From a phage, in sequence record PZ168832.1: DNA of 64,000 bases, one strand, 5' to 3'. The notes beneath the pieces are model-generated. The model saw nothing but the letters and a program-made list of their open reading frames with translations. It made no database searches and was not told the origin of the DNA. A program made the translations under genes and the position numbers. This document shows, piece by piece, positions 1-20,772 of this stretch (the first letter of the stretch is position 1; each line of letters starts with the position of its first letter).

Positions 1-354
1 ATTATTAGAACTCATTGATGTAAAGATTTCTGCACCAGAACGGTTTTCACCAATCAGGTTAATAAAGCCGCCAGTTGAACGAGGCTGAACGAAAGTGAAA
101 CGTTGCATCCACGGAGTGCGGTTGGCACCTTTCCCTGTGAATCCTTGAATCTGAATATTCAGGCCTTCTTGCTCGTTCACACCGATGTAAGTGGTAATTG
201 TTGCGCCAGTCGTCGCTGCGGTCTTGCCGTCCATCGCTTCGCAATCGTAAACAGCGATTGAATCGGAAGTACGGACAGCGGCTTCAGTCGCTTCCATATA
301 CATGGTTCCGAGAATAGCAGTTGCGGCAAGCGCGATTCCAGTGATGCGTTTCAT
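1..354 (-). CDS. Secreted protein, partial (ATG at 354; runs off the window start with no stop)
   Basis: Open frame read by hand from ATG 354..352 to position 1 (118 codons, not in the ORF track because it lacks a stop). N-terminus MKRITGIALAATAILGTMYMEA is signal-peptide-like. Confidence 0.45.
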   Translation of the reverse strand, partial: MKRITGIALAATAILGTMYMEATEAAVRTSDSIAVYDCEAMDGKTAATTGATITTYIGVNEQEGLNIQIQGFTGKGANRTPWMQRFTFVQPRSTGGFINLIGENRSGAEIFTSMSSNN

Positions 355-419
355 TTTCGTTTCCTCTATGATTTCTGCTTCAATGATTAAAGTATACGCC
401 CATTGAAGCAGAAAGCAAA

Positions 420-1415
420 TTATTTATTAGCAATATAAGCAAATTTTTGATAGTTATTTGCTTTGATGAGTTTTTCAACTTCAACAAGGTCATGAGCTAC
501 GTCATCAAGCAAGATGTTGCGCCATGTAGCGAATCGGCCAACACTGAATACGTTCAAATCCATAGTCAGCTGGAGCAGTAAGGCGTGTCGCAAGTCTTTC
601 GGAATGTCGACAATCTTGCCATATTTCTGGTCGACCTTTTCAACTTCTTCAAGAGCAATGTCACTCCATGAGAGGCCAAAGGCTGTCAATACTTCGTCAA
701 CTTCTGCACGCAACTTAATGTCACGGTAACGAGTGATGCCGCCAGCGGCTTCAATTGCGGCTTCACTTACGCTAACCAAAGGAATTGTTTCAATGATCAA
801 TGTGTCGCCAGTGATTGATGCGCGGTAAGTTCTGACGGAGTAGTCAGGAAAGTAAATGGTTTGATACAGTTCACACTTGCGTTTAATCTTAAAGCGGTAA
901 ACACGAATGTTTGCCTTGTCGAATGAGAAATCAATCTTTTGATCAATCCCAGCAAGCTTCATTATGACTGGCAGCGGCGATGTGTTGATGATTGGCGTCT
1001 CGCTATAGCCGCAAAGAGTATCAACAGGAGTATTAAAGAATATGCGGTCACCCAGTTTGTCGACAAGCTGATCATAAAAGTCATCAGGCGCAATATAACG
1101 CGTTGCAGTTTTAAGCTTCATGATTGAACGGCTGCCAAACTGATTGGTGACCTTCATGGAATACATGTTGGCAAGGTTGATTGGGCAATGGTCGTGGTAG
1201 TAGTTGCCGCGAAAATACACAGCCTTGTCAACTGTCACTGCCTTAAAAGGGATTCCGGTAATACGGCTTACTTCTTCGCCGCGAAAGCGTAGCAGCGCCT
1301 TGTGCTGTGGCGCTCGCTCCCCTGCTTCGTACACAATAGAGTTCGGGAAGTGACACGCGGTAATAAGTCCTGCCAAACCGCCGCCGATAATCATTACAGG
1401 TTGTTTCATGTTCAT
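420..1415 (-). CDS. FAD/NAD(P)-binding oxidoreductase, UDP-galactopyranose-mutase / amine-oxidase-like
   Basis: N-terminal dinucleotide-binding motif MIIGGGLAGL (GxGxxG) and C-terminal GRFATWRNILLDDV resembling the GR..Y..MD flavoenzyme motif. ATG at 1415 and 1409; AAGGA RBS is better spaced for 1409. Confidence 0.6.
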   Translation of the reverse strand: MNMKQPVMIIGGGLAGLITACHFPNSIVYEAGERAPQHKALLRFRGEEVSRITGIPFKAVTVDKAVYFRGNYYHDHCPINLANMYSMKVTNQFGSRSIMKLKTATRYIAPDDFYDQLVDKLGDRIFFNTPVDTLCGYSETPIINTSPLPVIMKLAGIDQKIDFSFDKANIRVYRFKIKRKCELYQTIYFPDYSVRTYRASITGDTLIIETIPLVSVSEAAIEAAGGITRYRDIKLRAEVDEVLTAFGLSWSDIALEEVEKVDQKYGKIVDIPKDLRHALLLQLTMDLNVFSVGRFATWRNILLDDVAHDLVEVEKLIKANNYQKFAYIANK

Positions 1416-1439
1416 TTGTCCTTTGTGGGTGATATGAGA

Positions 1440-1468
1440 AGTATAATAGCTAAATTATTTTACAGCAA
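1440..1468 (-). promoter_or_regulatory. Sigma70-like promoter for the oxidoreductase / secreted-protein unit
   Basis: On minus strand TTGCTG, 17-nt spacer, TATACT, between the upstream terminator and the ATG at 1415. Confidence 0.35.
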
Positions 1469-1494
1469 CAAGTCATTTCTATTTAGTACAGACG

Positions 1495-1521
1495 AAAAAA
1501 GACCCACAACAAGTGTGGGTC
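1495..1521 (-). terminator. Rho-independent terminator after the Lys/Ala/Glu-repeat gene
   Basis: Perfect 8-bp stem GACCCACA/TGTGGGTC with 5-nt loop, followed on the minus strand by TTTTTT. Confidence 0.5.
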
Positions 1522-1549
1522 AATTACCGCTATATAACCGTCCTACAGG

Positions 1550-2389
1550 TTATTCCGCTTGATCACCGTCTTCGGCATTGTCGTTGGATTCAACATCGAC
1601 AAACTCGATGTGTCCCATCTCTTCCAGCTTGCTCAGGTAGGAGCGAACGGAAGCGCCAAACAGTTGATCTTTAACTTTCTCGCCCAGCTCATCGATAGAC
1701 TGTGCCACGCCAACTTCGCCTTCTTTGATCGCCGCCAGAACGCGTCCACGGGTGGAATGCTCTTGCGGCTGGCTCAGGCCATTGCCAGTGTAGATGAAGT
1801 GAGTGGCTTTTGCACGACGCTGACCGTTTGCCTTTTTAGCAGCCTTGCGCTCTGCGATAGCTTTGCGACGTTCTTCAGCTTCTTTCTTACGCTGTTCTTT
1901 CTGCTGTTCCGCAGCTTCTTTCGCCGCAATCTTAGCAGCTTCACGCTCTGCCTTGCGTTTCGCCTTGGCTTCTTCTTTGGCCTTCTCTTTTTCGGCCTTC
2001 GCTGCAGCACGGGCTTGATCACGCTCTGCTTTCTTAGCAGCAGCCTGCTCTGCTTTCAGGCGCTTGGCTTCTTCTTTAGCCTTTGCCTTTTCGATTTCTT
2101 TTGCTGCTTTAGCGGCTTCACGCTCTGCTTTCTTAGCAGCAGCCTTTTCTGCACGCTCTTTAGCTTTCTTAGCTGCTTCTTCAGCACGCTTCTGAGCCTT
2201 CTCATCAGCAGCCTGTTTGCGCTTCAGCGCGGCTTCTTCACGCTTGGCTTGTTTTTCCTGCTCACGCTTCTGGCGTTTTTCTTCGGCTTCTTTCTTTTTA
2301 GCCAGGCGTTTTTCTTCAGCCACGCGACGACGTTCTGCTGCGGCTGCTTGTTTTTCTTCTTTAGATAATACTTTGATTGCTTCGGCCAT
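1550..2389 (-). CDS. Lys/Ala/Glu-rich low-complexity protein with a C-terminal globular domain (histone-H1-like / nucleoid-associated candidate)
   Basis: About 200 aa of KAE repeats (AEKAAAKKAEREAAKAAKE...), then a roughly 80-aa non-repetitive C-terminal region. ORF-track start at 2395 is GTG; ATG at 2389 has an AAGGA RBS 8 nt upstream. Confidence 0.6.
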   Translation of the reverse strand: MAEAIKVLSKEEKQAAAAERRRVAEEKRLAKKKEAEEKRQKREQEKQAKREEAALKRKQAADEKAQKRAEEAAKKAKERAEKAAAKKAEREAAKAAKEIEKAKAKEEAKRLKAEQAAAKKAERDQARAAAKAEKEKAKEEAKAKRKAEREAAKIAAKEAAEQQKEQRKKEAEERRKAIAERKAAKKANGQRRAKATHFIYTGNGLSQPQEHSTRGRVLAAIKEGEVGVAQSIDELGEKVKDQLFGASVRSYLSKLEEMGHIEFVDVESNDNAEDGDQAE

Positions 2390-2548
2390 ATTCACAGTCC
2401 TTAAATAAATTAGTTTATTTTATATTCCCCGTTTGGGATAACTTAATTATGCCTTCAGTCGCCGCCAGTAGCAACTAAAAACTATGGCGGCAATGCCACT
2501 TTAATTAAACTGATTTTCAGTTTTATTTTTCGTAAATTTACGTCAACA

Positions 2549-3733
2549 TTAACGCGCTTTCAAATCACGGTACACGGTCAGATTCTTCTTAGCACGGGTG
2601 ATAGCGGTGTACATCATCTTGGAGTACGGAACGCCGCGCAGGATTTCTTCCAGCACGCACACGTTGTCCCACTCGCTGCCTTGCGATTTGTGGACCGTGA
2701 TTACATAGCCATAGTCCATCCCGCCAACAGCGCGTTGAGCCTCTTTGCGCACTTCCTGATCAGTAGAGAAGGAAAGAGGATTAATCTTAACCTTTATATC
2801 TTTGCCATCGGTAAGCGAGCGCAAATTGACATACATGATTTCATTGGACTCGTCTTCGTCCCTTTCAAAGTCCGGCACTGGCTCATAGCTAATAACAATC
2901 CCTTGCTCGCCATTACAGAATCCTGGGCCGTGTTGGTTGAAGGTGCAAATAACCTTCTCGCCGATTCCTGGCATTGGCGTTATACGTCCGCTCACTTGCC
3001 GTAATAATGAATTCCATTTGTCTTTGGTGCTATTATAGGAGCAAATAATTTGATCATCTTCGCCCATGAATTTCTTCAATGCAGTAACGCGCGGCGATTC
3101 TGCCAACACTTTGACGTCATCATATTCACGCGGAGGAAGGCGGTTGCCTTGGCGCACGAAGAAGGAGGCGCGGATAATGTTGGACTCTTTCCCTTGCCGC
3201 ATGATTTCTGTTAACAGTACGTCAACGGCTTCTTCGGTAAAGTAGGCGGCGGCTTTTACCGGAGGGACTTGTCCAATGTCGCCTAATGCCAGGACAGGGA
3301 TGCGGTGATCAAGAAGGCGCTCTGTGTCCCACTCGCCAACCATCGACGCTTCATCGAGTACAACAAGGTGCGGCCTTTCATCCAGCTTTGACTTTCTCGA
3401 AAAGATTGGCTCATTGTCGTCATTTACGCCGCGCACGTTATAGATGAACTGGTGAAGGGTCTTAGCGCCACGACAGCCTTTTTGCTTTAATCGGCTTGCA
3501 GCCTTTCCGGTCGGCGCAATATAGATAGCGCCGTACTCACCGACACAGCGGCGCACAATCTCGCGAGCAATAGAGGTTTTACCAGTCCCTGCATAGCCAG
3601 CGATGAAAAACACGCGCTTCGTCGTTTTACCGTCCTGCAATCGCTTGTACCATGCAACGGCTTTCTCGATGGCGTCGATTTGTTGCGCGTTAAACTGAAT
3701 CACTGGCTCATCATTAAATTCTGGAATGTTCAT
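2549..3733 (-). CDS. dda: Dda/RecD-like SF1 DNA helicase
   Basis: Walker A GYAGTGKT, DEAS-like LVVLDEASM, C-terminal VITVHKSQGSEWD motif; 394 aa. Confidence 0.8.
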   Translation of the reverse strand: MNIPEFNDEPVIQFNAQQIDAIEKAVAWYKRLQDGKTTKRVFFIAGYAGTGKTSIAREIVRRCVGEYGAIYIAPTGKAASRLKQKGCRGAKTLHQFIYNVRGVNDDNEPIFSRKSKLDERPHLVVLDEASMVGEWDTERLLDHRIPVLALGDIGQVPPVKAAAYFTEEAVDVLLTEIMRQGKESNIIRASFFVRQGNRLPPREYDDVKVLAESPRVTALKKFMGEDDQIICSYNSTKDKWNSLLRQVSGRITPMPGIGEKVICTFNQHGPGFCNGEQGIVISYEPVPDFERDEDESNEIMYVNLRSLTDGKDIKVKINPLSFSTDQEVRKEAQRAVGGMDYGYVITVHKSQGSEWDNVCVLEEILRGVPYSKMMYTAITRAKKNLTVYRDLKAR

Positions 3734-15643: not shown

Positions 15644-15660
15644 TAGTGATTAATGTTAAG

Positions 15661-15684
15661 AGGGCCGATTGGCCCTTTTTGTTT
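15661..15684 (+). terminator. Rho-independent terminator ending the plus-strand early array
   Basis: AGGGCC-GATT-GGCCCT hairpin followed by TTTTTGTTTG. Confidence 0.6.
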
Positions 15685-15798
15685 GCCTGTGGAATGTGAG
15701 GCTTTTGTGGTTATTTACGATTCAAGGCTGTAATTTAAGAGAGCGAAAATATTATAATAATTTATCAAGATTATTGCATATTGTGGCAATCAACGTTT

Positions 15799-16499
15799 AT
15801 ACGTATTTATGACAGTTTAATCCACTAAATAATACGGATAGAACAGTGAGGAAAATACAGCGGTGTATTTTAGTGTAAATATTGAATCAAAAATAAATAA
15901 TTATGGTGCTATTATATACGCAGATTGTTTGTAATTTATAGGATATTTTATCGTGGAGTATTGGCTAACGGTGCGTTAGCCGTGGGTCTTGGTGCTTGTG
16001 GTGTTGATGCTCAGAATTTTAATAATGTTTTAGTTTTAGTAATCGTAGTCAATGATGATACGTATAAGAAAATGAGAGTCACCCCTTCACAGGATATTGT
16101 ACCGTGGCCCTGTGGTGCGCCGCGCCTGGGATTGCTGGTATACACTGGTGCTATTTTGCCGCGAAGGCAGTCATTCATACGTATCATGACGTATCATTGG
16201 GCTATTGATTTATAAGGAAAAATACGCTGATACGGATGATACGGGTGCAAACATAATATATATAGAATTCCAGAAAATTAATTAACTCCATTTTGAATTA
16301 ATTTAAATTAATTTTTTTCTACATCCTCATACTTATACTAAACTTATATTTATACGTATCATCCGTAAGATATAAGTAAAAACAAAGACTTGCGGCAATA
16401 CGGATGATACGTCATGATACGCTTCAACCAGCCATCTGCGGCTAAGTCATTGATTTGCATAACAAGCGGCGAAAGGGATGGATTTCTTTTATACGTATC
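15799..16499. repeat. Iteron cluster A: 9-10-bp CGTATCATC / GATGATACG units in both orientations around an AT-rich core
   Basis: Units at about 16057-16065, 16176-16200, 16229-16245, 16353-16369, 16398-16422, 16491-16499; AT-rich core 16261-16316; 8-bp palindrome GGCTAACG..CGTTAGCC at 15962-15980. Confidence 0.6.
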
Positions 16500-16635
16500 A
16501 AACAGTACACCACGCACCACGGTCCGCAATCCACGCAGCATTATGATTTGTGTACATTTATAGCCATAATGAACATCAATCTGCACTTGAATATAATGTC
16601 CATCCATTGTATAATTCACACTATTAATTTGCACT

Positions 16636-17124
16636 ATGGGATTTTGCACTATGAGTCAAGACTATGTAGCGATGCCTGAAGACTTTGAAGACCCGCGATT
16701 TGCAGAGCACAATCAGGCTTTATTCGATGAGTTCATTGACCTTGTTATTCAGGGCCATGACATGCGCGCAGCTTTTGCACTAGTATTTGGAATGGAAGTT
16801 GCAACGGATAACTACACTGGACAGCGAATCCTTTGCGCGCAACGCAACCCATACTACAAAATGCGCTTCAAAAAGCGTATGGAAGAGATGCCACTCAAGG
16901 ATTTGTGGAGCGTAAAAGGTGCAATTCACAATTTGGTTAAGCTTGTGCGTGATCCAGAAGTCGCGGCGTCAGCCAAGCTTAATGCTATTCGCGAACTGAA
17001 TATCATCTACGGCATCACGATGATTGATGAAAACGGCAATAGTAAAATGGGCCGTTCCATGGACGATTTCTACAAGGATTTTGGAGAGGCAGCCAAAGAA
17101 GGCGAGCAATTCTCCCGCCACTAG
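16636..17124 (+). CDS. Terminase small-subunit-like DNA-binding protein (tentative)
   Basis: N-terminal FDEFIDLVIQGHDMRAAFALVFG and QRNPYYKMR resemble the small-terminase HTH pattern (F..EY..d.n...AA..AGYS ... LL.NP.V), by recall only. Alternative starts at 16651 and 16672. Confidence 0.4.
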   Translation: MGFCTMSQDYVAMPEDFEDPRFAEHNQALFDEFIDLVIQGHDMRAAFALVFGMEVATDNYTGQRILCAQRNPYYKMRFKKRMEEMPLKDLWSVKGAIHNLVKLVRDPEVAASAKLNAIRELNIIYGITMIDENGNSKMGRSMDDFYKDFGEAAKEGEQFSRH

Positions 17125-17142
17125 CCAATTTGCACTATAAAA

Positions 17143-17178
17143 CGGCCCTAGAACACATCTTCTCCACTTCTAGGGCCG
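17143..17178 (+). other. 11-bp perfect inverted repeat (stem-loop) just after the terminase-small-like gene
   Basis: CGGCCCTAGAA, 14-nt loop, TTCTAGGGCCG; no T-tract follows. Confidence 0.3.
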
Positions 17179-17523
17179 TCGGTAATACGACGGGGAAGGT
17201 TGCAACCGTAAACGCGTTAGAAAGTGTATTATTATAAGTCATCTTTTAGTCACCTTACGTAACAATTTACGACCTTCAGCCGTCCAATCGAACGACTCCA
17301 CCAGCAGATTCGCACTATAACCTAAGATGATGCGCCCTTTCTCGTTATCGACCCGCCAACAAGTCTCGAATAGCATTCGATTTGCACTATTAACTATCGC
17401 CGCAACGCGCGTAGGGTAAACGCAATTTGCACTATGGTCATAAAGGGATAAGGTGCGACCACTTCCGATGGACAACGTAGCGATGAGAATGAGCGTATTC
17501 ATAAGCCACCAATTTGCACTATG

Positions 17524-17546
17524 AAAAGCGACCCCGAAGGGCCGCC
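17524..17546 (-). terminator. Rho-independent terminator ending the minus-strand arm of the cassette
   Basis: On minus strand GGCGGCCC-TTCG-GGGTCGC (7-bp stem with one G-U, TTCG tetraloop) followed by TTTT. Confidence 0.45.
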
Positions 17547-17552
17547 ATTCGA

Positions 17553-18179
17553 TTAGATAATCTGGAAGGTGTAGGACTTGTTGCCGAACTCGAAGTTCAA
17601 GCGCCCAGCTTCCTTAAGCTTCATGCGGAAGCGAATATGTTTGCTATCCGGTAAGCCCAGCGCGGCGAACGCTACGCGGACCGATTTGAACTCTCCTACA
17701 CCCTCGACCATAACGCCGTTACGGGTAAGACGCTTTTGCGCCACTTCCTTATTATCCCAACTTTTTGCAATGCCTTCGCTATTCGAACGGCGATGGGAAG
17801 GAGTTCCGTTTTGCACTACGCAATTTGCACTATCGTTTAAACCGCTCTTAACGAAGGCTTCATACTCTTCGTCGGTCATCGCGTCGAGTTCTTCCTGCGT
17901 CGGCTCGGCCTTTTTAACGACCGCACGCGCCTTATGCGTTTTTACATCGCTGGACACTTCCTCGCGCGGCTTCGCGTCGGGGATGGGCGATTCGTTGGAC
18001 GGCTCATCGAGCGCGTTTAAGGACTCGATTAACGCGATTACGCGAGTCTCGGCGGTCCGGCGGTCCGAAAACTTCTTAATCGGTTTTGAGCCGGAATTTG
18101 CATTATAGAATGCAACGAGGTCGGCGGTCTTAGTTGCGATAACGTCGCCGCTAGTCGAGAAGCGATTTAAGCTAACCAT
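17553..18179 (-). CDS. Hypothetical protein (208 aa), cassette gene
   Basis: Strong third-position bias with abundant CGC/TCG/GCG/TTA codons unlike the rest of the window; the antisense ORF 17578..18108 is Ser-rich low complexity. Confidence 0.55.
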   Translation of the reverse strand: MVSLNRFSTSGDVIATKTADLVAFYNANSGSKPIKKFSDRRTAETRVIALIESLNALDEPSNESPIPDAKPREEVSSDVKTHKARAVVKKAEPTQEELDAMTDEEYEAFVKSGLNDSANCVVQNGTPSHRRSNSEGIAKSWDNKEVAQKRLTRNGVMVEGVGEFKSVRVAFAALGLPDSKHIRFRMKLKEAGRLNFEFGNKSYTFQII

Positions 18180-18259
18180 AATAAACTCCTATTTGTTAGG
18201 GCGCTAGGCGCGAAAGAATTTTATTAAAGCGCCGCGCACGACGCTCTAAAAATCCTCTC

Positions 18260-18544
18260 TTACGCTTCGACGAGGGAGAAGGTTTCAAATTCTTCTTCTC
18301 CCATAACGAGTAAAATATTCCCGATTTCGACCGCTTCGAAGAAGTATCCGTTAACGTTTACTTCGAATGATTCGCGGTCCGATTCCGGTAACGCCGCGTA
18401 AAGTTTAAAAGCCTCGGCGACCGTTACCCCACCCGCTTCAATAGTTTGATCTACGTTCGCGGCGTAGACTTCGGATAAATTTTGTTTTACGCCGTAGTTC
18501 TCGACGATAGCGTTACGGATAGAAGAAACGTTAAGAATAGCCAT
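18260..18544 (-). CDS. Small acidic protein, paralogue of 19176..19466
   Basis: Aligns by eye with 19176..19466: SIRNA/SAIRAA, LSEVYAANVDQTIE vs LESVYLSNVDATIE, VNVNGYFFEAVEIG vs VTINGFVYTITEIG. Confidence 0.55.
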   Translation of the reverse strand: MAILNVSSIRNAIVENYGVKQNLSEVYAANVDQTIEAGGVTVAEAFKLYAALPESDRESFEVNVNGYFFEAVEIGNILLVMGEEEFETFSLVEA

Positions 18545-18612
18545 TTTAAACTCCTAGTTGGGATAGGCGTTAACGACCTATTCGTTAACTCATCCCGTCC
18601 CGATATGAGTAC

Positions 18613-18640
18613 ATTATAATATAGTGTAGAAAAAAGTAAA
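18613..18640 (-). promoter_or_regulatory. Cassette promoter P1 (sigma70-like)
   Basis: On minus strand TTTACT, 16-nt spacer, TATAAT, followed by a conserved TATCGGGACGGG block. Confidence 0.5.
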
Positions 18641-18684
18641 GCACTTTTTCGATAAAAATGCGATAAATTATTTTATCTTTTTTC

Positions 18685-18712
18685 TTTACTTCTTCGTACA
18701 CTCGCGTATACT
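18685..18712 (+). promoter_or_regulatory. Cassette promoter P2 (sigma70-like)
   Basis: TTTACT (18685-18690), 16-nt spacer, TATACT (18707-18712), then conserved GTTTATATCGAGACGG. Confidence 0.5.
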
Positions 18713-18767
18713 TGTTTATATCGAGACGGGCGATGGCCTTTCTTCTACTAGCATCGGGAGCTTTATT

Positions 18768-19070
18768 ATGACTACTTTGATCTCTTCCATCCTTACTTAC
18801 GACGAAGACCGCTTAACCGTTCGCTCTCTTATCGCCGCCGTTAACGCGGAACTAGAATCTAGCGCCATTAAGGTCCGCGCGGTCGCCTTCATCGGCCTTT
18901 CCTTCGACGATATGAAGTACGCCGAACGTAGCGCCATCCGCTTCACGAAGACCGACGACGAAGCCGTTACCCTTATCGAGACGGTTACGCCGCGCGACGA
19001 AGCGTTAATTATCATCGAGTATATCGATATAGAAGGTGATAAAGCTTATAAATATTTTATCGCAAAATAA
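18768..19070 (+). CDS. Small acidic protein (100 aa), cassette gene
   Basis: ORF with GGGAG RBS; same codon bias as the other cassette genes. Confidence 0.55.
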   Translation: MTTLISSILTYDEDRLTVRSLIAAVNAELESSAIKVRAVAFIGLSFDDMKYAERSAIRFTKTDDEAVTLIETVTPRDEALIIIEYIDIEGDKAYKYFIAK

Positions 19071-19081
19071 CGAAAAATTGC

Positions 19082-19110
19082 TTTACTTATTCGTACACTA
19101 AGACTATAAT
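19082..19110 (+). promoter_or_regulatory. Cassette promoter P3 (sigma70-like)
   Basis: TTTACT (19082-19087), 17-nt spacer, TATAAT (19105-19110), then conserved GTTTATATCGAGAGGG. Confidence 0.55.
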
Positions 19111-19175
19111 GTTTATATCGAGAGGGATGAGGAAGCGAATAGGTCGCTACCCTCCCGACTAACTAGGAGAATATT

Positions 19176-19466
19176 ATGATTACTTTATCCGCTATCCGCG
19201 CCGCTCGCGTCGAAACTTCCGAAAACTCTAATGTATTTGGCGAAACCTTAGAGAGCGTTTATCTCTCTAACGTAGACGCGACTATCGAGTCTATTTATGA
19301 ACCGATCAACTTCCTCGACCTTTACAAGTATCGCGACGAGGACGTAGCATCCTACCGCGTAACGATTAACGGCTTCGTCTATACGATTACCGAAATCGGC
19401 GGCGAATATCTCGCGATCCCGCAACTCGGCGGAGAAGTGACTTATTTTAAAATCGTAAGCCTTTAA
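19176..19466 (+). CDS. Small acidic protein, paralogue of 18260..18544
   Basis: See alignment under 18260..18544; TAGGAG RBS. Confidence 0.55.
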   Translation: MITLSAIRAARVETSENSNVFGETLESVYLSNVDATIESIYEPINFLDLYKYRDEDVASYRVTINGFVYTITEIGGEYLAIPQLGGEVTYFKIVSL

Positions 19467-19477
19467 GGAGAAGAAAA

Positions 19478-19687
19478 ATGACTAATATGAATAACTCTCT
19501 TAACGCGCGCGCCCATCGTACCGCCGTCATCGATATGTTCCGCGAACTTAAGGAATTATGCGATAATATGAACGCGATGTTATCCATCGGCGGCTGGGGA
19601 TACGAAGAAGAGGTTAAATACGCGGTTATGCGTCGTAAGCGCGATAACGTCCTGGGACAAATTAAACGCGCCGGATTATTCCTTTAA
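19478..19687 (+). CDS. Small hypothetical protein (69 aa), cassette gene
   Basis: GGAGAAG RBS then ATG; followed by a terminator. Confidence 0.45.
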   Translation: MTNMNNSLNARAHRTAVIDMFRELKELCDNMNAMLSIGGWGYEEEVKYAVMRRKRDNVLGQIKRAGLFL

Positions 19688-19713
19688 TTATAATTACCCA
19701 CCGTTACTAATAG

Positions 19714-19739
19714 GCCGCGCTTAGTCGCGGCTTTTCTTC
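19714..19739 (+). terminator. Rho-independent terminator ending the plus-strand arm of the cassette
   Basis: GCCGCG-CTTAGT-CGCGGC hairpin followed by TTTTCTTCG. Confidence 0.55.
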
Positions 19740-19857
19740 GTCCCTATTTCGATGCGCTTCTCCGCGAAAACTCCTTTATCCTTCCCTTCGTCGTCGCATA
19801 ATCTTCTTCGAGATGCTCCTTAGTTCGCATAACAGGTATTACGTTAAATGGAGAACA

Positions 19858-19931
19858 TCGCGTAAGTCCTTGTTTTATATAGACACCTATATCGGACCGT
19901 TAGGGCGGGTCGCGTAAGTCGTTGTTTTATA
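19858..19931 (+). repeat. Direct repeat pair TCGCGTAAGTC(C/G)TTGTTTTATA
   Basis: Copies at 19858-19879 and 19910-19931, 52 bp apart, in a non-coding stretch. Confidence 0.5.
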
Positions 19932-20056
19932 AAGGCGCAAAACTTTCCCTTCGTTCCGAACTAAAACGAGGAATATGCCGACCCTTCGTCCGAAAATAGT
20001 ACGCATGCGAAATTACATGCATCTAGAATAATCCCCACCGATATTATCCTACACGC

Positions 20057-20120
20057 AATCATTCGCTTTCGAATCATTATGCTTCATATTGTTATGCGTC
20101 AAATCATTCGCTTTCGAATT
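20057..20120 (+). repeat. Direct repeat pair of an internally palindromic unit AATCATTCGCTTTCGAAT
   Basis: Copies at 20057-20075 and 20102-20120; each contains the inverted repeat ATTCG..CGAAT. Confidence 0.5.
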
Positions 20121-20391
20121 GTAACGCTGGAAACTGTAACGGCTATTGATTATTGCGTTCGTGTGGTTTTTATGGCATGGGTCTTTTGGTGCGTTTTGGT
20201 ACTTGATGGAATTTGCGGTACACTAATCAAAATACGACACATTTGGTCCACTAACTTTTCAAAGAAAAAGTCCCAGACAGTACCGTACTATTTTGTACCC
20301 ACAGTAAATTTGCAGTACACTCCTGCGCGGCAGGCAAAATAAAGGGCCGCCACAGCGACCCACGATTCACGGTTAAATCAACAAGCACCCA

Positions 20392-20772
20392 CTATTCACT
20401 CTTATGGGCATCACCAAAGCCATCCGCAATCTGGCTGATCAGCGATTCAATGGACACAGTTTTACCAATTGATCGAGCGGTAATAGCAAGCATATTATCA
20501 ATCAAACCATGATTGGATGCATATGATCCAGGTTTTGAATCATCTTCAGAACAACCAAAAAGCTGGTCGCGCAGACTTTCAAGAGAACGCTCAATATTTT
20601 CCAACTTCTCTTCTAAATCGGATTGGCGACGTAAAACCCACGTCAAGTCACGGTTGCCAACTTCCAATCCATCAGAATAGCAAGGTGGAGCGTCAATTTT
20701 GATGCTGGAACCAAAAGCAATGCCGCTGCCTTTAGTATATGTGTGACTCATAGAATCATTTTTATTTGACAT
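20392..20772 (-). CDS. Hypothetical protein downstream of the tail fibre (possible fibre assembly factor)
   Basis: AAGGT RBS then ATG at 20772 (track start 20838 is TTG). Confidence 0.45.
   Translation of the reverse strand: MSNKNDSMSHTYTKGSGIAFGSSIKIDAPPCYSDGLEVGNRDLTWVLRRQSDLEEKLENIERSLESLRDQLFGCSEDDSKPGSYASNHGLIDNMLAITARSIGKTVSIESLISQIADGFGDAHKSE

Follow-up and report, generated by a model that had tools for sequence, protein, structure and literature searches.

An untranslated, repeat-bearing stretch at the inferred right boundary of the terminal repeat of a Wifcevirus-type phage: a candidate region for genome end formation

The stretch studied here, 19740-20390, belongs to a 64,000-nt piece of DNA from the phage sequence record PZ168832.1. 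The whole piece is called the window, and its positions are used as coordinates throughout. We consider that the stretch is probably a cis-acting end-formation region, of the pac or cos kind, in a phage with a long direct terminal repeat (DTR). Judged from its sequence, the source is a Wifcevirus-type myophage of E. coli. The stretch was matched over its full length, at 89-97% identity, by 29 phage records, and the family Lindbergviridae was stated in one of them. The reading was drawn from three things taken together: the position of the right DTR boundary, the convergent terminators that bracket the stretch, and the conservation of parts of it. From these we infer a cis signal for the right end of the genome.

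The right boundary of the DTR very probably lies within the stretch, at 20186/20187, as transferred by alignment from related phages. In Mansfield (MK903282), the DTR obtained by PhageTerm analysis (PMC6753283) runs from 1 to 3673, and its end at 3673 aligns with window position 20186. The records of WFH (MK373776), Ro157lw (MH051335) and SP13 hold both copies of the repeat, and all of them end at the base equal to window 20186. The repeat of Ro157lw was given as 3,533 bp by PhageTerm (PMC6454146). At the other end, the first base of WFH, of Mansfield and of Ro157lw equals window 16290. The alignments of WFC and SP13 start at their position 12, which is window 16301, and this is compatible with a start at 16290. 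These mapped record starts and ends place the repeat at window 16290-20186, collapsed to one copy in the assembly. The features that carry the argument are as follows.

16290-20186, strand not applicable: inferred DTR of 3,897 bp, in single copy in this assembly (from the termini of related records)
20186-20187, strand not applicable: right DTR boundary and inferred right physical end of the virion DNA, ...GGCATGGGTCTTT / TGGTGCGTTTTGG... (from four related records)
20187-20234, + strand: conserved right-end element, TGGTGCGTTTTGGTACTTGATGGAATTTGCGGTACACTAATCAAAATA, which includes the repeat copy D4a at 20210-20224 (from cross-genus alignment)
16636-17124, + strand: gene for the small terminase (TerS), within the DTR and some 350 nt from the left terminus (from phmmer, phrog_4783 and the Mansfield annotation)

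The product of 16636-17124 matched PDB 7UXE, the small terminase of phage E217, with a phmmer E value of 6e-34, and by this similarity it is a bona fide TerS homologue encoded in the repeat. We also came across a metagenome contig, OFPW01000008.1 (4,253 bp), which is essentially the terminal repeat alone of a near-identical phage, with a TerS 100% identical. This is the pattern expected when a repeat of doubled coverage assembles on its own. The first-pass annotation, made from the letters of the window, had suggested that the stretch might be a junction left by recombination. A junction it appears to be, namely that of the DTR with unique sequence, where virion DNA has its right end in the relatives; it does not appear to be a recombination scar. 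The same annotation had called it a possible regulatory region, which holds only if the term is taken broadly, to cover any cis-acting DNA site.

Distant relatives with mapped repeats were found through their TerS homologues. The TerS of Pantoea phage Kyle (Kylevirus, MN038177) is 43% identical, and its record carries a DTR of 3,603 bp at both ends with 0 mismatches. Two Serratia phages of Myosmarvirus, MyoSmar (MN062189) and MTx (MK618717), each have a TerS of 36% identity, with PhageTerm repeats of 3,559 bp and 3,566 bp, respectively. In all three phages TerS lies close to an end of the repeat, and DNA without a convincing gene surrounds the right boundary; in the Kyle record a small hypothetical open reading frame (ORF) is drawn across it. 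The order and orientation of genes from TerS to the boundary are as in the window in Kyle only. The MTx and MyoSmar records were deposited in opposite orientation.

Immediately outside the boundary, an element of about 45 nt (TGGTGCGTTTT...GTACACTAATCA, with the first AATTTGCGGTACACT copy) is kept in register with the mapped terminus in Kyle and MyoSmar. From +1, the element reads TGGTGCGTTTTGGTACTTGATGGAATTTGCGGTACACTAATC in the window, TGGTGCGATTTCACACAAAATGGATTGGCACGTACACTAAAT in MyoSmar and GACCGCGATTTAGTACCTGGTCCAATTTCACAGTACACTAAT in Kyle. Between the window and MyoSmar, 27 of 42 positions were identical without a gap when the termini were set at offset 0. This was the best of 600 offsets, the next-best giving 20, and its binomial probability is about 1e-6. 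Between the window and Kyle, the best local alignment in 700 x 700 nt paired +5..+47 with +5..+48, and its Smith-Waterman score was 36 (shuffles 21.0+-2.2, maximum 28). The boundaries of MyoSmar and Kyle thus lie at the base homologous to 20186/20187. Outside this element of about 45 nt, the rest of the spacer gave no alignment between the window, Kyle and MyoSmar. A second GTACACT box stands outside the boundary in every genus: the window copy is listed below, Kyle has ATTCACGCGTACACTGG at +372, and MTx and MyoSmar have AACGTACACTGG at +78. MTx has GGACAC at the position of the element, so it was missed by the exact pattern, but the element still aligns. As a separate observation, the repeat deposited for WFC takes in the right-end element, unlike those of four other Wifcevirus records.

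We also surveyed how widely the element occurs. An exact-pattern scan of IMG/VR for CRGTACACTAATCARAAT found Wifcevirus and Kyle only. The degenerate pattern TTAGTGTAC-N15-17-GTNNNAAAWCGC added one IMG/VR contig and 25 metagenome contigs. Five of the 25 were Wifceviruses; the other 20 and the extra IMG/VR contig looked like chance, without the neighbouring genes, and were rejected as carriers. Five IMG/VR loci reached through TerS were examined and were without the element, while Pbunavirus Ab27 and Salmonella phage PCSE1 had neither the element nor such a spacer. In these scans of IMG/VR and metagenome contigs, the element was confined to Wifcevirus, Kyle and MyoSmar. Pbunaviruses are reported to be circularly permuted headful packagers.

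The short repeats of the stretch lie on both sides of the boundary. Three pairs had been noticed in the first-pass annotation, here called D2, D1 and D4, and all of them were found where it had placed them, far above chance. D2 is TCGCGTAAGTC(C/G)TTGTTTTATA, and its copies are 23/25 identical and 52 nt apart from start to start. D1, AATCATTCGCTTTCGAAT, occurs as exact 18-mers at 20057-20074 and 20102-20119, which are 45 nt apart. D4 is AATTTGC(G/A)GTACACT, at 20210-20224 (D4a) and 20307-20321 (D4b).

19858-19882, + strand: direct repeat D2 copy 1, TCGCGTAAGTCCTTGTTTTATATAG, where the spacer is most conserved, with a nucleotide diversity (pi) of 0.019-0.031 (from sequence comparison)
19910-19934, + strand: direct repeat D2 copy 2, TCGCGTAAGTCGTTGTTTTATAAAG (from sequence comparison)
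20057-20119, + strand: D1 unit pair with three AATCATT boxes, at 20057, 20072 and 20102 (from repeat and box counts)
20120-20141, + strand: two TGTAACG boxes, 15 nt apart (2 of the 5 forward copies in the window)
20307-20321, + strand: D4b, the second AATTTGCAGTACACT box (121 nt outside the boundary)

Chance was tested with 100 dinucleotide-preserving shuffles of 19740-20390. Three pairs of 15-mers with <=1 mismatch were observed, compared with 0 in every shuffle, and the longest exact direct repeat was 18 nt, compared with <=12 nt in the shuffles. Elsewhere in the 64-kb window, no copy of D1, D2 or D4 was found at <=3 mismatches, save one chance-level match to D4 with 3 mismatches. D1 had also been described as a hairpin. 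Each of its copies does include ATTCG-N4-CGAAT, but the palindrome is not conserved, and many relatives carry one-sided substitutions in it.

Just inside the boundary, the boxes are concentrated in more than one genus. Three AATCATT boxes lie within 200 nt of the boundary where 0.07 would be expected (P=5e-5), and Kyle has four AATCATT/AATGATT boxes just inside its own boundary (P=4e-6). AATCATT is the core of the D1 repeat, and its spacing of 45 bp is common to the window and Kyle. Kyle also has boxes TGTTACGG/TGTTAGGG, which are similar to TGTAACG. In Myosmarvirus, TAAGTGGTT repeats occupy the place just inside the boundary instead of AATCATT boxes. The resemblance of D2 to these repeats is suggestive, 19/22 with a 3-nt gap, although not above shuffles. 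We considered D2 copy 2, GCGTAAGTCGTTG, as the counterpart of the Myosmarvirus GTAAGTGGTTG repeats, but dropped it, as the Smith-Waterman score of 24 was not significant (shuffles 21.1+-2.6). All three genera have a top strand rich in G+T (0.61-0.74) over the final 100-200 nt of the repeat, which for window 20087-20186 is about +3 standard deviations, and the GC skew is positive just inside the right boundary and flips immediately outside.

Conservation within the genus was measured in an alignment of 15 Wifcevirus sequences. Nucleotide diversity was 0.02-0.03 over 19820-19999, which holds D2, and over 20120-20299, which holds the boundary and D4a. Both values are below that of the flanking protein-coding genes (0.04-0.25). 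For the right-end element itself, 20187-20234, pi was 0.03. The D1 region and a hairpin at 20001-20022 are the least conserved part of the spacer, with pi of 0.08-0.11. The stem of that hairpin is broken by an ATG->CGA substitution in about half of the relatives, and in Bas100 one D1 unit has been removed by an exact deletion of 45 bp.

Transcription from both sides seems to stop at the edges of the stretch, where the following signals were found.

19712-19733, + strand: intrinsic terminator that closes the + strand genes of the DTR (from the terminator scan; annotated in the Mansfield, WFH and WFC records)
20344-20361, - strand: intrinsic terminator that closes the minus-strand operon from the tail-fibre side (from the terminator scan; annotated in WFH and WFC)
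20001-20022, - strand: terminator-like hairpin, not conserved (from the terminator scan)

The stretch is the gap between two convergent operons, bracketed by the convergent terminators 19712-19733 (+) and 20361-20344 (-). As terminators stand at both flanks, it is an inter-operon gap and not a promoter region for either operon. The spacer is probably transcriptionally silent. Neither does it seem to code for protein, and the first-pass annotation was right that no credible ORF occupies it. The largest ORF, 20079-20342 (87 amino acids), is interrupted by stops or frameshifts in 13 of the 15 aligned relatives, and its variable sites by codon position are 14/14/8, without an excess at third positions. 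A protein-coding gene, possibly frameshifted, was rejected on these grounds, since this ORF is neither kept intact nor evolving as coding sequence. The remaining ORFs encode 31-45 amino acids, and the small ORFs were not put through a database homology search. In the GenBank records of relatives, differing small ORFs are annotated in the stretch, or none.

If the proposed reading is correct, a cut or nick at 20186/20187 in replicating concatemers would give the packaged genome its right end. The same position, in the left-hand copy of the virion DNA, would be the junction of repeat and unique sequence. The element of about 45 nt that abuts the cut, with the outer GTACACT box, would position the cleavage or nick, and the AATCATT boxes phased at 45 bp and the TGTAACG boxes inside the cut would be accessory binding sites. 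The packaging machinery would presumably bind the conserved element and the boxes, and the cut would be determined by them. The binder might be the terminase, whose TerS gene is in the same repeat, or another partner protein. With one repeat copy per concatemer junction, a second event at 16289/16290 would be needed, and the repeat would then be duplicated. Whether the short repeats and the right-end element do act in end formation seems to us, on the comparisons above, an evenly balanced question.

A broader proposal can be made more tentatively. A portable right-end signal might set the end of the long (3.6-3.9 kb) exact repeat in Wifcevirus, Kylevirus and Myosmarvirus of Lindbergviridae, whereas Pbunavirus, with a homologous TerS, would be without the signal and package by headful. 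The parts of such a signal might be TGGTGCG(W)TTT-N20-GTACACTAA right at the cut, another GTACACT box farther out, and, on the inner side, phased boxes that differ between genera (for example, AATCATT at intervals of 45 bp); this description is offered with the same reserve.

Several observations weigh against the end-formation reading. The boundary was transferred from relatives that are 94-97% identical here. Its base-level precision is not guaranteed: in the WFC record (MK373777) the repeat ends 81 nt further right, at window 20267, and the PhageTerm boundaries of MTx lie 14 nt inward of those of MyoSmar at both ends. The latter offset we suspect to be an artefact of read trimming and not biology. 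One D1 unit is dispensable, having been deleted in the viable Bas100, and its palindrome drifts. D2 is the best-conserved repeat, and no function could be assigned to it, nor does it have a clear counterpart in Kyle. TerS of E217 showed no appreciable DNA binding in vitro (PMC9611059), which weakens TerS as the binder. The GTACACT boxes could also be operators of a regulator. Two near-identical sigma70-like promoters inside the repeat, at 18685-18712 and 19082-19110, carry GTACACT in their spacers (TTTACT-N5-GTACACT-N4/5-TATAMT, then GTTTATATCGAGA) and stand before two small + strand genes. At a distance from the left terminus 16290 comparable to that of the right-end element from its own boundary, there was no copy of the element but only loose GTACAC boxes at about +200. 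By short-word BLAST and in-register identity scans, the left and right boundaries were no more similar in register than expected by chance. A single recognition site shared by both cuts was therefore not supported by the sequences compared.

The left terminus, 16289/16290, has surroundings of its own. Around it is another non-coding stretch, 15644-16635 (about 1 kb), with its own set of repeats, namely GATACG/CGTATC boxes and nested inverted repeats centred near 16299. The inverted repeats are a perfect 18-nt pair (16180-16197 / 16404-16421) and a 13-nt pair (16231-16243 / 16355-16367). WFH is without the outer arm, and 15706-16227 is variable among relatives. As the repeat set of the left end is different, it can be argued that the two ends are recognised differently. 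In the whole window, the best secondary match to the right-end element was D4b, with a score of 25. The next-best, an inverted GTACACAAATCATAAT at 16540-16555 (14/16), tied with unrelated hits and was set aside. The segment 15982-16020 was also rejected as a second copy of 20177-20214; its score of 28 (shuffles 23.7+-2.3) is at the level of chance, and it is absent from WFH, WFC and SP13.

One further similarity was noticed near the left terminus. A 26-nt sequence, TGGCCCTGTGGTGCGCCGCGCCTGGG at 16105-16130, matches MyoSmar at 23/26 positions, with a score of 37 (shuffles 22+-2.4). In MyoSmar the match is an inverted pair, at locus positions 3345-3370 (+) and 3634-3659 (-), which flanks the equivalent terminus. 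The sequence is absent from WFH, WFC, Ro157lw and SP13, and it has the core TGGTGCG in common with the right-end element.

Among the neighbouring genes, that at 19478-19687 (69 amino acids, phrog_10377, 'transcriptional regulator') adjoins the + strand terminator at the start of the stretch. It is an indel among the relatives, being missing in 10 of the 15 aligned Wifcevirus records. After the same terminator, 19700-19850 is a C-rich, G-poor tract that could be a rut-like site. The 94-amino-acid product of 18260-18544 (-) and the 96-amino-acid product of 19176-19466 (+) resemble diverged paralogues in opposite orientation. They have motifs such as VY..NVD.TIE and ING..... EIG in common, and in a related contig tblastn with one of them matched the locus of the other at 33% identity. 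The DNA upstream of the two genes also shows inverted similarity.

Other explanations of the stretch were weighed against these results. The GTACACT boxes, and perhaps D2, might be operators for a phage-encoded repressor or activator with a further role in the control of early promoters in the repeat, in which case their position at the boundary would be incidental. Besides the two promoters with the box in their spacers, it fits this explanation that, of the six GTACACT/AGTGTAC copies in the window, the + strand has five and the segment 18696-20321 has four, and that the small regulator gene just described is close by. However, convergent terminators enclose the boxes at 20218 and 20315, where no promoter has the matching geometry, and a check by eye of sigma70 promoter geometry at D2 and D4 found none that fits. 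The boxes are retained in the relatives that are without the regulator gene. Kyle keeps the box at its distance from the terminus, but none was found in the promoters of the equivalent genes. We consider operators unlikely. It is a little more doubtful that the stretch is an injection-stop and early-control region as in phage T5, where a repeat-rich inner end would halt DNA entry after first-step transfer. The injection stop signal region of T5, an untranslated region where a long terminal repeat has its inner end, carries direct repeats and palindromic units and is defined by 8 DnaA boxes. Here the last 450 nt or so of the repeat are likewise non-coding and repeat-rich, and of the five best sigma70-like promoters (10/12) in a 5.5-kb scan, four are within the repeat, in keeping with early genes. 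But there are no DnaA boxes nearby: TTWTNCACA had 3 hits in 64 kb, none of them within 2.5 kb, and is under-represented. No named Pfam family was found above threshold for the seven ORF products of 16636-20772, six of which are in the repeat; similarity to T5 A1/A2 was not directly compared. Moreover, the most conserved element is outside the repeat and in register with the cut, which end formation explains better.

A replication origin of the iteron type, or a primosome loading site, between the convergent operons is very unlikely in our view. Direct repeats of 18-25 nt, spaced at 52 nt for D2 (about 5 helical turns) and 45 nt for D1, would suit it, as would a strand-asymmetric composition in which G+T makes up 0.65 of the top strand over the 100 nt that precede the boundary. 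However, each repeat family has only two copies, DnaA boxes are missing here too, and no initiator gene is adjacent. The GC content of 0.37-0.47 (0.46 genome-wide) does not reveal a marked AT-rich unwinding element, and the extremes of the cumulative GC skew of the window are elsewhere. It is highly improbable that the stretch is a functionless spacer or recombination scar whose repeats are debris of slippage or duplication. For recombination there are two details, the repeat-mediated 45-bp deletion in Bas100 and the indel at 19478-19687, and the drift of the palindromes also agrees with it; otherwise the suggestion of the first-pass annotation did not hold. Diversity is below that of the adjacent genes over most of the stretch, conservation across genera is in register with the terminus, and the AATCATT 7-mer recurs at equal spacing in Kyle, whose TerS is so diverged. 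The non-coding RNA locus that had also been proposed was not borne out, and a small RNA from the minus strand of 19950-20120 is the explanation to which we give almost no credence. Weak promoter-like sites (9/12) do occur on that strand at 20102-20073 and 20072-20043, followed by the hairpin 20022-20001, and the minus-strand folding z-score was -2.2 to -2.4 over 19950-20119, with other z-scores ordinary. Nevertheless, no Rfam match rose above noise (best 16 bits, compared with a gathering score of 40), and the alifold consensus was weak, -19 compared with -44 kcal/mol for the single sequence. The disruption of the hairpin in about half of the relatives is without compensation, and nowhere is the spacer less conserved than in this part, from which Bas100 has lost 45 nt.

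The end-formation reading is in one respect unsurprising, as the genome ends of an exact-repeat phage are expected in non-coding, repeat-bearing DNA. It has some practical value. For annotation, it accounts for a gene-free, repeat-rich stretch in which 'hypothetical protein' calls of small size are inconsistent among GenBank records. For assembly, it shows where Wifcevirus genomes should be opened. For engineering, Wifceviruses, now part of the BASEL collection, are suitable candidates, and the rebooting of synthetic genomes needs correct ends. For biology, a short element in register in three genera, with phased boxes beside it, offers a concrete candidate for an end-formation signal that can be mutated. 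The mechanism that makes long exact repeats has been described as unknown (PMC6454146, citing Casjens & Gilcrease 2009). If the portable signal proposed above is real, it would offer a defined cis element with which to dissect the generation of long repeats and the switches of lineages between headful and exact-end packaging.

The closest comparison is with the DTR boundaries of Wifcevirus, Myosmarvirus and Kylevirus, which lie at the same locus, with similar repeat lengths (3.5-3.9 kb) and TerS near the left end. In related records the boundary is already annotated by coordinate. The records and papers examined on the three genera give coordinates only; the conserved end element and the phased boxes are annotated in none of them, and end formation is not discussed. 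The stretch is like the T5 region in being an untranslated inner end of a long repeat, rich in repeats and palindromes, and unlike it in having no DnaA boxes within 2.5 kb; nor are these phages known to take in their DNA in two steps. T7 and T3 also produce exact, non-permuted terminal repeats from concatemers with one repeat per junction, and their maturation depends on cis elements adjacent to the boundary. In T7 the repeat measures 160 bp and is processed in a way coupled to the phage RNA polymerase, whereas the repeat here is about 25 times longer, with no phage RNA polymerase among the ORFs examined in or next to it. In lambda cos (cosN with the R-sites of cosB) and SPP1 pac (pacL-pacC-pacR), recognition boxes for terminase flank the cleavage site. 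Those sites give cohesive ends or start a headful series, whereas the cut here would bound an exact repeat of 3.9 kb, and a second cut or nick 3.9 kb away and duplication of the repeat would be needed; there is no sequence similarity to either site. The likeness lies in the arrangement. Short repeated boxes stand on one or both sides of a defined cut in non-coding DNA with a TerS gene nearby, and the element next to the cut may be likened to cosB by cosN in lambda and to pacR by pacC in SPP1.

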